Shown: positions 1 to 3,660 of the stretch, piece by piece
Position numbering within the stretch: position 1 is the first letter of the stretch
Layout: each line of letters starts with the position of its first letter
Virus record (IMG/VR): IMGVR_UViG_2713896780_000020
Origin: a virus
Lineage: Duplodnaviria > Heunggongvirae > Uroviricota > Caudoviricetes
Strand: one strand, 5' to 3'
Length of the DNA stretch: 5,933 bases
Made by a program: the position numbers and the translations under genes
The notes under the pieces: model-generated
The model's database searches: none
Told to the model about the DNA's origin: nothing
What the model saw: the letters and a program-made list of their open reading frames with translations, nothing else

Positions 1-743
1 ATCAGGCTGTCGTAATGCGCGTCATTGTGGATGTGCTGGCGCAGCCAGGCTTCATCGTGGCGATGTTCGATAATGGTATTGGCGATATGGTGACTGGTAC
101 GCATACCGTTAGTGGCCATCACCGACAGTACGGCATCGGCCATCAGGGAAACGCCTACGTGTGGATCGCAAAACACCTGGCTGATACCTGCCAGTTGTCC
201 CTGGACCTTTGCCACATCCAGCGTGGTTCCGCCTAAATCCACAATCAGCAGGGATTCAAACGGACTCATGTCAGCCAGTGCTTTAAAACCAGCCGGAATG
301 GATTCAGGCATAACCCGTACGTTACGGATAGTGAATGCTTTTCCGTTCTGGTACGCCACCGGGCGCATGACGTTTGCTTTTTTGCGGTTGATGTTGGCCA
401 TGTCCGGCTGTGCGTTTGTGTCGAAATATTCGCTCAGTGGCAGGGTGACAACCACATCCACTTCCTGTGGTGTGATGCCTGATTTGACCAGCGCGTGATG
501 AATGGCAATGACATTCACATCGCTGTACTGGTATTGCGTGTCGGTCGTCTGGACAAAGCGATCGCTGACCGGATCAAAACCATAGCGCACGCCATCAAGC
601 ATGTAGTTTGCGGGCTGCGTGCCACCGAACGGCGCAGACCATTCCGACTTGAAGCTGTTCGGGCTGATGGCGTTGCGGCGTTCGCCGTTCTCAGTCCATG
701 CCAGCTTGATGTTGGTGGAGCCGTCGTCGATACAAATTTTCAT
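1..743 (-). CDS. ParM/StbA-family actin-like ATPase (plasmid-segregation type), N-terminal 247 codons; 3' end lies beyond the window
   Basis: ATG at 743-741 (minus) with an AAGGAAAAG Shine-Dalgarno about 8 nt upstream. I checked every in-frame codon down to position 3 and found no stop. Translation begins MKICIDDGSTNIKLAWTENGERRNAISPNSFKSEW... and continues ...YQYSDVNVIAIHHALVKSGITPQEVDVVVTLPLSEYFD..., matching from memory the hallmark N-terminus of R1 ParM (IDDGSTNIKL, ISPNSFK, YSDVNV.A.HHAL). Not in the ORF track, presumably because it is truncated at the window edge. Confidence 0.8.
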   Translation of the reverse strand, partial: MKICIDDGSTNIKLAWTENGERRNAISPNSFKSEWSAPFGGTQPANYMLDGVRYGFDPVSDRFVQTTDTQYQYSDVNVIAIHHALVKSGITPQEVDVVVTLPLSEYFDTNAQPDMANINRKKANVMRPVAYQNGKAFTIRNVRVMPESIPAGFKALADMSPFESLLIVDLGGTTLDVAKVQGQLAGISQVFCDPHVGVSLMADAVLSVMATNGMRTSHHIANTIIEHRHDEAWLRQHIHNDAHYDSL

Positions 744-777
744 GTCGCTTTTCCTTATGTTGATTAATTAATCGTTT

Positions 778-797
778 ACGGGATTCTGAAATCCCGT
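778..797. repeat. 20-bp perfect palindrome ACGGGATT-ctga-AATCCCGT (copy 1), within a ~36-bp repeat unit 775-810 with a T-rich tail on the plus strand
   Basis: Read directly: 8-bp arms are exact reverse complements with a 4-nt spacer; followed by tttttgcctgttttgtg. Lies in the 76-bp spacer between the gpA stop and the ParM-like start. Confidence 0.6.
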
Positions 798-819
798 TTT
801 TGCCTGTTTTGTGTGCGCT

Positions 820-3660
820 TCATATATCGCGGCGCGTTTTTTGCTCATTTACGGGATTTGTGAATCCCGTTTCTGTCTGTTTTTTGTTTCCACTGGTCAG
901 GCCACCCCGCAGCAGGTCTGCTTTGCGGCGGGCACGTTCAGTGGTTTCACTGATTCTCTGTGCGTGCTCTGCGTCGCGGATGGCGCGCAGCATGTCAGAA
1001 AGCACGGTAACGGGTGTTTTCATGGTGTTCTGGTCCTGCTGAAGTGTGGATGCCAGACGTGCGGCGGCTTCGGGGTCTGATGCCCCCAGTTGTTCCAGAT
1101 AGCTGGCGACCGGGTTATGGCGGATCTCTGTGCTGCTTACGCCGTGATTACGGCTCAGGCGCTGCCAGAGCTGCGTGATTCGGCTGTCCGGGCGGGTATC
1201 CGGTTTGCGTACAATTTCAAATCCCTGCGGTGCAATGATGCTGCCGTCAACGTACAGGCTGCCGCCCCGTAACAGGTGCTGCATCTGCTGTTCACCGATA
1301 TGCAGGCCGAGAGATTCGGCAGATTCCCGCCATTCTTTAGCGAGTAATTCGTGGTTATCAGGCAAAGGCCGCTGCTGTTTGCGGCTCTGTGTCCAGCTCT
1401 GCATTTCATCACTGCTGTTTTTTGCCTGTTTGTCACGAAGCGAACGCATCAGCGCCCGGCGTTCGTGCCGTTTCAGTGAGTGCATCCATTCGTTCACTTC
1501 AACGCCATCAGGGAGCTGCGGCCACGGTGCTGGCCGTTCTTCCGGCTGTTCTGTCCCGTTGTTGTTCGTTTCCTGTACACGGGGACAGTTATTGCCACGA
1601 GTCCAAGGGGCGGCAGGGCCGCCCTGAAGGTCAAAACCATTTTCGCGGGCGCTGTCTTCCGCTTCCGGTTTACGTCTTACCAGCTTCCAGTTATCCGGGT
1701 GCGTGCACACGCGGGAAGACTCCCCGATGAGCGGCGACCAGATCCCGTAAATCTGTACACTCTGCTCGCCGTAATCGTTCAGCTCATCTGCGAGGTCGTA
1801 GGCGGTGCGAATCAGGTAGTCTTTGCGTGGAACAAGTACGCCACCCTGTTTCTCAATGTAGGTGGCAAAACATCCGGCATCAGCGGCAGCGAGTACCGCG
1901 TCCATTGCGTCATCCTTCAGCCGTTGCGGGCCTTCCGGGTTGCGTGCCATCTGGCTGGCAAGGCGGCGCAGTTCACGCCACACCTGACGGGAGGGGATAC
2001 CAAAGAACTGGAACTGGCGGACCCGGTGAAGGCGCGCCCAGCCGATGGCGCGTTCCACGCTCTCGGCCATTGATTTTCCGGTTTCGTGGTCAACGCGTGG
2101 CTTGCCCGTTTTCGGGTCGATGCCATCCACGGCGCGGCTGTCCAGGTTCTTTCCGATGTAGGTGGCGATGTAGCTGGTTGGTGTGCCTTTTGAGCCGTCG
2201 ACATACTCCACCTTAAAGCGCGGAGTAATATCATTGCCCAGCTCGTGGCGGTCTTCCTGAATGGCAATATCGCGGGTGATGGTCACGATGCTGTCGATTT
2301 CTTCTGGATGAGCAAAGACCATCATGTGCCAGTGCACGGTGCCGTCATGGTGAGGCTCCACCGTGCGGATGCCATACCAGCGCAGGCCGTCGCGGTTCAG
2401 TTTTTTGCGGACCGCCGCAAAAAACGTGTTAACCAGGTAATCGCTGGAGTCGCGCATGGTGGCCCCGTTCCATTTGGGGTTCGGATGACCGTTCTCCGTT
2501 GTTGCGTGGTATTTTGACGGGCAGGTGACAGTCAGAAACACCGCTCTGTCGCCACGGGCTTCGGCCAGAAGTTCCAGTCCCTTCATGGTGGCCATCATTT
2601 CTGCCTTACGGTGAACCGGGTTACTTACTCCCGCGTAATACACCGTCTCGAGATCAATCGTGAACCCGTCTTCATTTTCCAGCATGAAACTTTTCAGGAA
2701 ATCGCGTGTTTTCTCGCGCTGTGCGCGAAACTCGCTTAACGCGTCCTGGCTCAGATAGGGTGATGTTTTTCTGGAAACCAGACAGGCGGCGCGGAGTTGT
2801 TCTTCTCTCCACTCGCAACGTAACAGCCACAGTTTGCGTTTCCACCATTCCGCACAGGTCAGGCGAAGGATTGCGCCCGGCAGCAGCTCCGTGTCCGGTT
2901 CGTTCCTCCGGTCTTTGTCTGTTGTCAGTGCGTCATAATGTGGAGGCATGGCGTGCAGGTGTAACGCCATGCGGGCCAGCATCTGATACGCCTTCAGCGT
3001 TACATCCATGGTCAGTTCGCCATCAGTCGCGCCAAAGCCATCGCAGAGTTTTTCGAAGGTGCTGCTGAACATCGCCGCCGTCATGGTGGCCAGCGTCTGT
3101 ATCTGGTGTTTGTTGAGCTGCGGCAGGTAAAGCAAATCGTCCAGGCGTTCGCGTCCGGCAAGAGAGCGATAACCCGGTGTCAGCCAGCGGCTGTCGGTGC
3201 GGTCCAGACGTTCGAATATTTTGCGCAGGGTTCCGCGTGCATAGCGTTCCGCCTGCCAGCTCTTTTTGCCTTTCTGACGATCGGCTTCCTGCTTCTTGCG
3301 CAGGAAAGAGAGGTGGCGGCTCAGAGGTTCTCGCAGATAAACGGGAAGCGCCTTCAGTGTGGCAAAGGCACGGGCTACCGGGTCTTGTTCTGTTGCCCGG
3401 CGCTTACTGATGATGCTCTGTGCCAGCTTTTCACGCTGTCCGGCTTCCTCAAGGGATGCCATGAGTTTTTTACCCATGGCGGATTGTGCGAAAAAGGCTT
3501 CTTCCTTTGCTTCCTGTTCTTTCTGTGCCCTTTTGTCCGCCTCAAGGTAGTAACGGATGGCGCGTTGCAGGTCGGTTTCAGTTTCCTGCCTGTGCTCCGT
3601 AAATCTGGCTGGATCAATGGCTGGCCGTGGTTCATTCCAGCTCCATGCAAACTCACTCAT
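820..3660 (-). CDS. A: Replication initiation endonuclease, phage P2 gpA family (HUH rolling-circle initiator), 946 aa
   Basis: Long minus ORF with TGA stop at 822-820. I place the start at ATG 3660-3658, which forms an ATGA overlap with the stop of the upstream ORF, rather than the GTG at 3687 used by the ORF track. Translation contains LTVTCPSKYH, GIRTVEPHHDGTVHWHMMVF (HUH metal-binding motif), YIATYIGKN (paired catalytic tyrosines), FATYIEKQGG and RVRQFQFFGIP, all recalled as conserved blocks of P2 gpA. Longer than P2 A (761 aa as I recall). Confidence 0.9.
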   Translation of the reverse strand: MSEFAWSWNEPRPAIDPARFTEHRQETETDLQRAIRYYLEADKRAQKEQEAKEEAFFAQSAMGKKLMASLEEAGQREKLAQSIISKRRATEQDPVARAFATLKALPVYLREPLSRHLSFLRKKQEADRQKGKKSWQAERYARGTLRKIFERLDRTDSRWLTPGYRSLAGRERLDDLLYLPQLNKHQIQTLATMTAAMFSSTFEKLCDGFGATDGELTMDVTLKAYQMLARMALHLHAMPPHYDALTTDKDRRNEPDTELLPGAILRLTCAEWWKRKLWLLRCEWREEQLRAACLVSRKTSPYLSQDALSEFRAQREKTRDFLKSFMLENEDGFTIDLETVYYAGVSNPVHRKAEMMATMKGLELLAEARGDRAVFLTVTCPSKYHATTENGHPNPKWNGATMRDSSDYLVNTFFAAVRKKLNRDGLRWYGIRTVEPHHDGTVHWHMMVFAHPEEIDSIVTITRDIAIQEDRHELGNDITPRFKVEYVDGSKGTPTSYIATYIGKNLDSRAVDGIDPKTGKPRVDHETGKSMAESVERAIGWARLHRVRQFQFFGIPSRQVWRELRRLASQMARNPEGPQRLKDDAMDAVLAAADAGCFATYIEKQGGVLVPRKDYLIRTAYDLADELNDYGEQSVQIYGIWSPLIGESSRVCTHPDNWKLVRRKPEAEDSARENGFDLQGGPAAPWTRGNNCPRVQETNNNGTEQPEERPAPWPQLPDGVEVNEWMHSLKRHERRALMRSLRDKQAKNSSDEMQSWTQSRKQQRPLPDNHELLAKEWRESAESLGLHIGEQQMQHLLRGGSLYVDGSIIAPQGFEIVRKPDTRPDSRITQLWQRLSRNHGVSSTEIRHNPVASYLEQLGASDPEAAARLASTLQQDQNTMKTPVTVLSDMLRAIRDAEHAQRISETTERARRKADLLRGGLTSGNKKQTETGFTNPVNEQKTRRDI
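851..870. repeat. 20-bp perfect palindrome ACGGGATT-tgtg-AATCCCGT (copy 2), within a ~39-bp repeat unit 848-886 with a T-rich tail on the plus strand
   Basis: Same 8-bp arms as copy 1 with a different 4-nt spacer and similar flanks (ttt before, tttctgtctgttttttg after). Overlaps the last codons of the gpA-like CDS. Confidence 0.6.
2158..2172 (-). other. Paired catalytic tyrosine codons (Y-I-A-T-Y) of the gpA-like initiator
   Basis: Plus 2158-2160 gta and 2170-2172 gta both give TAC (Tyr) on the minus strand, spaced Y-x3-Y as in rolling-circle initiators of the phiX174 A / P2 A type. Confidence 0.75.
2326..2334 (-). other. HUH motif codons (His-Trp-His) of the gpA-like initiator
   Basis: Plus-strand gtgccagtg reverse-complements to CAC TGG CAC (H-W-H), residues 452-454 of the ORF-track protein, in the context VEPHHDGTVHWHMMVF. 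Confidence 0.8.

Follow-up and report, generated by a model that had tools for sequence, protein, structure and literature searches.

Type II (ParMRC) partition loci carry a centromere, parC, whose repeats lie directly upstream of parM, either as one continuous array or as two blocks around the promoter (PMC5016525). The adaptor protein ParR of plasmid pB171 was reported to need and bind just two repeats upstream of parM (PMC9426499). In the CGP3 prophage of Corynebacterium glutamicum, the AlpAC/alpS system serves phage DNA transport and replication and not plasmid inheritance (PMC4446434, PMC5539076). We examined a stretch of 5,933 nucleotides from a tailed phage (Caudoviricetes; IMG/VR record IMGVR_UViG_2713896780_000020), which in its full length is called the window below. 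It holds two 43-nt repeats, each with a 20-bp palindrome, that stand upstream of a ParM-type ATPase gene and reach into the end of the replication gene A (product gpA). From sequence comparison, we consider it probable that these repeats are the parC-type centromere/operator of a type II ParMRC cassette with the order parC-parM-parR, carried by a P88-like prophage.

The parC of plasmid R1 is found in the same order, with a homologous ParM and a ParR of the same Pfam family, and it resembles the prophage locus in having two blocks in helical phase upstream of parM, an A/C-rich sense strand and a CCC-containing core. R1 differs in its 5+5 direct 11-bp iterons, set in blocks ~105 bp apart round a strong promoter, whereas the prophage has two sites 73 bp apart, each an inverted pair of half-sites, no convincing promoter and a distal site within the upstream gene. 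The ParR of pB171 par1 (2jd3) is the closest solved homologue of the prophage ParR, but the pB171 repeats are direct and 10 bp long and their region is shared with the divergent parAB, while the prophage has 20-bp palindromes downstream of gpA. The cassette belongs by homology to the R1/pB171 ParMRC family.

Three further loci (L142 of Pantoea, L143 of Salmonella, and the integrase-linked element L298) have a ParM ~51-52% identical to that of the prophage, a ParR of PF10784 and repeats spaced 72-73 bp apart, as in the prophage. L142 and L143 differ in having three T-rich direct iterons (TTCTCT-like) per block, a promoter between the blocks and no palindromes. AlpAC is similar by description, in that a prophage-encoded actin-like protein works with an adaptor that binds DNA at sites close to its own operon, although host phylum and phage type are unrelated. 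Finally, the ribbon-helix-helix (RHH) proteins omega of pSM19035 and ParG (at parH) tolerate repeats in direct as well as inverted orientation by means of pseudo-symmetric contacts (PMC5016525), which makes a palindromic ParR site plausible; these are proteins of type Ib (ParA) systems, whose boxes are heptads or tetramers and whose cassettes are not homologous.

Two palindromic repeat blocks upstream of parM

The first-pass annotation of the window had described a perfect palindrome present twice with identical arms, and we recovered it at exactly the coordinates given. The pattern ACGGGATT-N4-AATCCCGT has two exact occurrences, which read on the plus strand as ACGGGATTCTGAAATCCCGT at 778-797 and ACGGGATTTGTGAATCCCGT at 851-870; their arms of 8 nt are identical and their loops measure 4 nt. 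The repeat finder reported the palindromes as one inverted-repeat pair and also as a 43-nt direct repeat in two copies (772-814 and 845-887; 81% identity, start-to-start spacing 73 bp), a longer unit than the 36-39 bp first estimated. Copy 2 lies 29-48 nt ahead of the gpA stop codon TGA (822-820, minus strand), in the final gpA codons, and copy 1 lies inside the 76-nt gpA-parM spacer with the parM ATG 35 nt beyond it; both placements agree with the annotation, as does the position of the T-rich tails on the plus strand. The distal block, whose A/C-rich 5' flank is AACAAAAAACAGACAGAA, encodes the last ~22 codons of gpA. The proximal block is intergenic and its GGG core stands 52 nt 5' of the parM ATG.

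Allowing up to three mismatches, the 20-mer pattern was found at these two sites only in an 18.3-kb prophage stretch, where 0.10 occurrences are expected by chance and none of 200 shuffles gave two. The complete 36-kb phage genome (99.3% identical to the window) likewise contains two copies only, so the search for further copies in the wider element that had been proposed yielded none. Lone half-sites elsewhere in the window showed no enrichment (8 against 3.9 expected, the extras all mismatched). The palindrome pair is a non-chance occurrence.

The order of the repeats, parM and parR, together with the ParM and ParR matches, gives the layout of a type II partition locus. A ParM-type ATPase gene follows immediately downstream: the part of ParM encoded in the window matched Pfam StbA_N (E 3.6e-82) and ParM_N (E 1.1e-37), and the full-length protein matched ParM of R1 (1mwk) with E 8e-93. 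The gene directly after parM encodes an RHH adaptor of 103-104 amino acids assigned to PF10784, Plasmid_stab_B (E 3.8e-25), and the ParR-family profile matches the RHH ParR of pB171 (2jd3) with E 2.6e-13. Since the window stops inside parM, parR was seen in a prophage locus 100% identical to the window over 700-960 (L001) and in Escherichia phage PhiR44_2 (99.3%). The repeats are directly 5' of parM and unique in the replicon, and they are inherited with parMR rather than with the neighbouring genes.

Several observations weigh against this assignment. The 43-nt units are direct repeats, but each core is inverted (GGG-N10-CCC) and there are no direct iterons, while the characterised ParR proteins bind direct repeats and not palindromes (PMC9426499). 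A sigma-70 scan found no promoter anywhere in the window, whereas R1 and L143 have one between their blocks; on the sense strand, a weak resemblance to a promoter (ATGAGC at 848-843, 16 nt, TATATG at 826-821) fell below the scan criteria, and, given the negative scan, we do not claim a par promoter between the blocks. The phage integrates, so that its need for partition is not obvious, and both copies also fit the shape of an intrinsic terminator on the plus strand. Among relatives, the Hafnia repeat was not significant by direct-repeat score alone, and the Serratia and Enterobacter prophages have a layout unlike that of the window, a long-range inverted repeat with 93-bp spacing. As far as can be read from sequence, the locus has all the testable features of the class except direct-repeat cores and a demonstrable embedded promoter. 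The suggestion in the first-pass annotation that the palindromes serve as operator or centromere of a partition system was thus strengthened by the parR gene after parM, by co-inheritance and by the conserved GGG-N10-CCC pair and its position, with ParR binding still putative.

If the repeats are parC, ParR RHH dimers would take both half-sites of each palindrome, and the GGG-N10-CCC core would accommodate a dimer of dimers at each site. Being 73 bp apart, or ~7 helical turns, the two sites would face the same side of the DNA, and ParR-ParR contacts together with the A-rich flanks could bend or wrap the ~116-bp region into one complex, like the split parC of R1. The conserved C-terminal tails of ParR would then capture the ends of ParM filaments, which would push copies of the phage DNA apart. 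Upstream open reading frames (ORFs) extend into the distal block, or across it, in the window, in the prophage locus L076 and in the Hafnia (L135) and Plesiomonas (L137) prophages; from this read-in and the lack of an evident promoter, parMR is probably co-transcribed with the early replication operon. Bound ParR would probably damp read-through from gpA into parMR, and may in this way be a feedback brake. It remains a tentative and rather doubtful proposal that a palindromic centromere of this kind, minimal with its two sites and lying partly within the initiator gene at its 3' end, lets an integrating P2-like phage use a ParM spindle on its own DNA. If this is true, the spindle would distribute or place the genomes that replicate in lytic growth, a role proposed for AlpAC of CGP3, or maintain a plasmid-like, episomal carrier state, and this would be the first ParR shown to recognise inverted instead of direct repeats.

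One complete P88-like genome from an E. coli isolate (L302, NZ_CP148288.1) was deposited as a circular 34,461-bp 'plasmid'; its genes include integrase, cox, gpA, parMR and those for structural proteins. The record may represent an episomal form, an induced form or a by-product of assembly; this circular 34.5-kb deposit is compatible with an episomal state and does not demonstrate it.

Conservation of the repeats and their inheritance with parMR

The relatives were collected in several scans. An exact-pattern scan of IMG/VR returned ~120 loci, nearly all of them prophages of one and the same type with gpA and parM; when IMG/VR was scanned with ParM, as alignments or as single proteins, most matches were of the E. 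coli type and the only new loci were L226-L228, and a contig scan with ParM gave at least three, near-identical to each other. In the phage collection, the ParR gene and the repeat region were found in the same 14 records. For conservation, an unbiased sample of 78 P88-like loci, picked by ParM similarity, was reduced to 63 unique sequences, in which positions 865-887 are almost invariant while gpA positions 888-1100 vary in 169 of 213 columns. From this break in conservation, the left edge of copy 2 (~887) marks the boundary of a module. The CGGGA/TCCCG cores show little or no variation among P88-like sequences, whereas the outer position, position 7 and the loops vary; in copy 1 the loop is the most variable part. 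A locus with a ParM 93% identical (L303) has nearly the same repeat region as the window.

The alignment with related prophages that had been proposed, asking whether the repeats accompany parM or gene A, was informed above all by three loci, in all of which they stay with parMR. In L056, both copies and parMR (ParM 98% identical) adjoin a gpA only 31% identical to that of the window; nucleotide homology starts ~15 nt upstream of copy 2, the preceding 159-amino-acid ORF stops 57 nt before it, and both copies lie outside long upstream ORFs. In L076 (394-831), a different, Cys-rich ORF of 145 amino acids enters copy 2 in a frame unlike that of the window gpA; since another frame is used, the constraint on copy 2 is not on protein. 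In L140, an Enterobacter prophage whose ParM is 54% identical, gpA and parM are set apart by a small ORF and a gene for a methyltransferase, and the repeat structure is directly upstream of parM despite this separation. We also noted that the gpA-tail DNA forms a separate 31-codon mini-ORF in L056 (6951-7046; read by eye), with GAGG upstream.

The opposite case, the same repeats in a relative without a ParM-like gene, which the annotation had named as speaking against a partition role, was not encountered among the scanned relatives; the parM-less contigs end at the repeats. We tried L124 as a parM-less relative and rejected it: both palindromes are intact and only 25 parM codons are left, which corresponds to an internal parM-parR deletion. 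There, parM codon ~20 runs directly into the 3' end of parR at a point ~150 nt beyond copy 1 on the sense strand. Five contexts with a single copy of the pattern (L050, L061, L121, L125 and L128) were unrelated and were treated as chance matches; the single copy in L128 resembles an ordinary terminator.

In more distant relatives, namely the P2-like prophages of Hafnia and Plesiomonas (ParM 62% identical), gpA is again upstream of parM-parR, in Hafnia with an extra ORF of 167 amino acids in between. Two GGG-N10-CCC cores, a motif with a background frequency of ~5 per 36 kb, occupy corresponding positions in the three phages (Table 1), and in Plesiomonas the distal copy is also within the last gpA codons. 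The inner ten bases differ: ATTcacaAAT and ATTtcagAAT in E. coli, ATTGAGGAAA and TTCATTAAAT in Hafnia, ACAACAAAAA and ACAACACTAA in Plesiomonas. In both relatives the stem is down to 3-4 bp and the hairpin is lost, while cores, spacing and position are retained. In Plesiomonas the 26-nt repeat reached significance, with 19 of 24 matches at spacing 72 and none of 300 shuffles doing as well.

Across the family, the repeat spacings (21, 32, 62, 72-73, 93-94 and ~105 bp) are near multiples of ~10.4 bp. Some relatives have a quite different repeat architecture: in the Serratia and Enterobacter prophages (L138 3887-3940; L140 3883-3950) the arms of the inverted repeat measure 14-20 nt and are 26-28 nt apart, and Xenorhabdus L301 has at least seven tandem 10-bp repeats, TTCTACATGG, at about -104 to -30 before parM.

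Table 1. Features of the window and geometry of the repeats upstream of parM in the window and in relatives.
Feature or locus	Window coordinates	Strand	Core position relative to parM ATG	Spacing (bp)	Remarks
parM, actin-like segregation ATPase	1-743	-			first 247 of 319 codons; runs off the left end of the window
Proximal repeat block (copy 1)	772-814	-			palindrome 778-797, sense ACGGGATTtcagAATCCCGT; flank ACAAAACAGGCAAAA
Spacer between blocks	815-844	-			contains gpA stop codon 822-820
Distal repeat block (copy 2)	845-887	-			palindrome 851-870, sense ACGGGATTcacaAATCCCGT; core GGG-N10-CCC
Gene A (gpA), replication endonuclease	820-3642	-			940 amino acids (RefSeq start); Pfam Phage_GPA E 1.5e-130
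Candidate P2-type nick region in gpA	~1585-1625	-			GCCGCCCCTTGGACTCGTGGCAATAACTGT at codons homologous to P2
GGG-N10-CCC pair, window			distal -125, proximal -52	73	
GGG-N10-CCC pair, Hafnia L135			distal -128, proximal -55	73	
GGG-N10-CCC pair, Plesiomonas L137			distal -131, proximal -59	72	
Pantoea plasmid-like L142				72	two ~34-nt blocks, T-rich iterons; plausible promoter between
Salmonella plasmid L143				73	two ~34-nt blocks; clear promoter TTGATA-N17-TATAAT between
Integrase-linked element L298				72-73	spacing of the top direct repeat
Serratia and Enterobacter prophages				93	long-range inverted repeat
R1-type plasmids				~105	11-bp iterons, 5+5

Other explanations for the palindromes

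We first considered that the palindromes are tandem intrinsic (Rho-independent) terminators of plus-strand transcription, antisense to parM and gpA, which would shield gene A from convergent transcripts. The shape proposed in the first-pass annotation is real: read on the plus strand, and not on the other, both copies have a stem of 8 bp, 4 of them G-C, with a U-tract immediately behind it (TTTTTGCC or TTTCTGTC), the plus-strand hairpin energy is ~-10.2 kcal/mol (z ~-2.9), and the variants of copy 2 retain G-U pairing solely in the antisense RNA. Nevertheless, the variants of copy 1 retain pairing solely in the sense RNA, so that wobble-compatible variants favour opposite strands in the two copies, and no compensatory changes were found in the 63 unique sequences, a pattern that says little about a hairpin. 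The hairpin is not kept up in relatives: Plesiomonas and Hafnia have lost it while keeping GGG-N10-CCC and its spacing, and in the plasmid relatives the corresponding place is taken by iteron blocks that have no hairpin. The T-rich tail is, moreover, the complement of an A/C-rich sense strand, as in R1-type parC. The A+C fraction of the sense strand is 0.80-0.82 in R1-type iterons (AACCC core), 0.69 in the prophage blocks (AATCCC) and 0.54 in the whole window, and by this comparison the tails reflect a feature that this parC family has anyway. Finally, transcripts of the late operon would meet stronger terminator-like sites before they reach the palindromes: one behind the portal gene, one within the accessory region and, for PhiR44_2, one just past parR. 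We therefore regard termination as unlikely to be the primary function, and as conceivable in a secondary role.

These stronger terminator-like hairpins are located at 6992-7012 and 5910-5930 of L001 and at 9511-9534 of L145. The hairpin of the accessory region is bidirectional, another overlaps the portal gene at its end, and the one in PhiR44_2 follows closely on parR. The three together would, by their predicted structure and position, insulate parMR from the convergent late operon.

An operator for a dimeric phage or host regulator other than ParR, controlling parMR or the end of the early operon, is a possible reading that we hold to be a little less credible still. An 8+8 palindrome suits helix-turn-helix dimers, and the phage encodes several small winged-helix or MarR-like proteins. 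A general regulator, however, would need further copies of its site, of which the phage has none elsewhere; the position relative to parM is kept across genera, and the sites accompany parMR where the replication module of the phage is another one (L056, L076). Given this co-inheritance, the reading is unparsimonious in comparison with a ParR site.

A sense-strand mRNA element between gpA and parM, acting as a processing site, a stabiliser of the gpA 3' end or an attenuator, appears improbable. The sense hairpins have folding energies of -10.7 and -11.0 kcal/mol (z -3.5 and -4.9) and bracket the gpA stop codon, but no U-tract follows them on the sense strand, there is no covariation, and the stem is lost in relatives that retain the GGG/CCC cores. 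An Rfam scan of window positions 600-1100 gave a chance microRNA match only.

The remaining reading, that the palindromes belong to a gpA-dependent replication origin, had been raised on the grounds that P2 and 186 place their origin inside gene A and that copy 2 is inside gpA; we rejected it as most improbable, since the nick annotated in the P2 record (at 29892, within GCGCCTCGGAGTCCTGTCAATAACTGT) is 427 bp ahead of the P2 gene A stop, its homologue in the window, placed by protein and DNA alignment, is at ~1585-1625 and not at 775-887, ~750 bp from the palindromes, and these accompany parMR to a different gpA type (L056). This candidate nick site falls in the sole stretch of the window that resembles distant P2-like phages at nucleotide level, 1555-1626 (minus strand), which matches those of Klebsiella, Salmonella and Yersinia with 83-93% identity.

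Prevalence, host phage and ParR variation

The window belongs to a P88-like phage (Xuanwuvirus, Peduoviridae), with Escherichia phage PhiR44_2 as its top match (99.3% identity). On the minus strand the genes follow the order gpA, repeats, parM, parR; the parM start ATG is at 743-741 with a ribosome-binding site AAGGA at 756-752. The gpA of the window, annotated by RefSeq in L001, is 30% identical to gpA of P2, and its last ~22 codons, KKQTETGFTNPVNEQKTRRDI followed by the stop, are encoded by the repeat module (window 820-887). Of 5426 complete E. coli genomes, 1304 contain region 700-960, in every case under the annotation 'replication endonuclease | ParM'.

About a quarter of the complete E. 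coli genomes thus carry the cassette, with its cis-acting site unannotated. We found no description of this parC in the literature searched, in which the papers on P88, phiSM and the diversity of P2-like phages mention at most a 'partitioning protein'. The interest of the locus lies in this prevalence and in why P2-like phages carry an actin-like spindle. As a candidate centromere the region is very compact (~116 bp), and the function of ParMR in an integrating P2-like phage becomes testable through two 20-bp sites. A parC at this place would also explain why the C-terminal tail of gpA is conserved as DNA but not in reading frame, and it would correct two tempting misreadings of the repeats, as terminators and as an origin.

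The prophage-clade ParR proteins share a conserved C-terminal tail, N-x3-[FL]FP[EDRG]. Their N-terminal beta-strand, MTTPTRRISFYLKP, is invariant across P88-like variants that are only 50-68% identical overall, and Hafnia and Plesiomonas have the same strand as RR[IV]SFYL[KN]P. A constant beta-strand fits the shared GGG/CCC core, and contacts between its arginines and the guanines may be inferred.

We also observed at least three variants of ParR (L001 7766-8080, L003 2501-2812 and L004 2501-2815) with a mutual identity of 50-68%, whereas the neighbouring ParM proteins are 95-99% identical. The ParR variants agree in their first 14 residues and in the C-terminal FPE, and the middle and the C-terminal half are swapped, a pattern that suggests modular exchange within parR. 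Finally, an assembly labelled Vagococcus sp., a Firmicute (L010, NZ_JBQPOM010000071.1), carries this enterobacterial prophage with a ParM 97% identical, and is probably contaminated or mislabelled.

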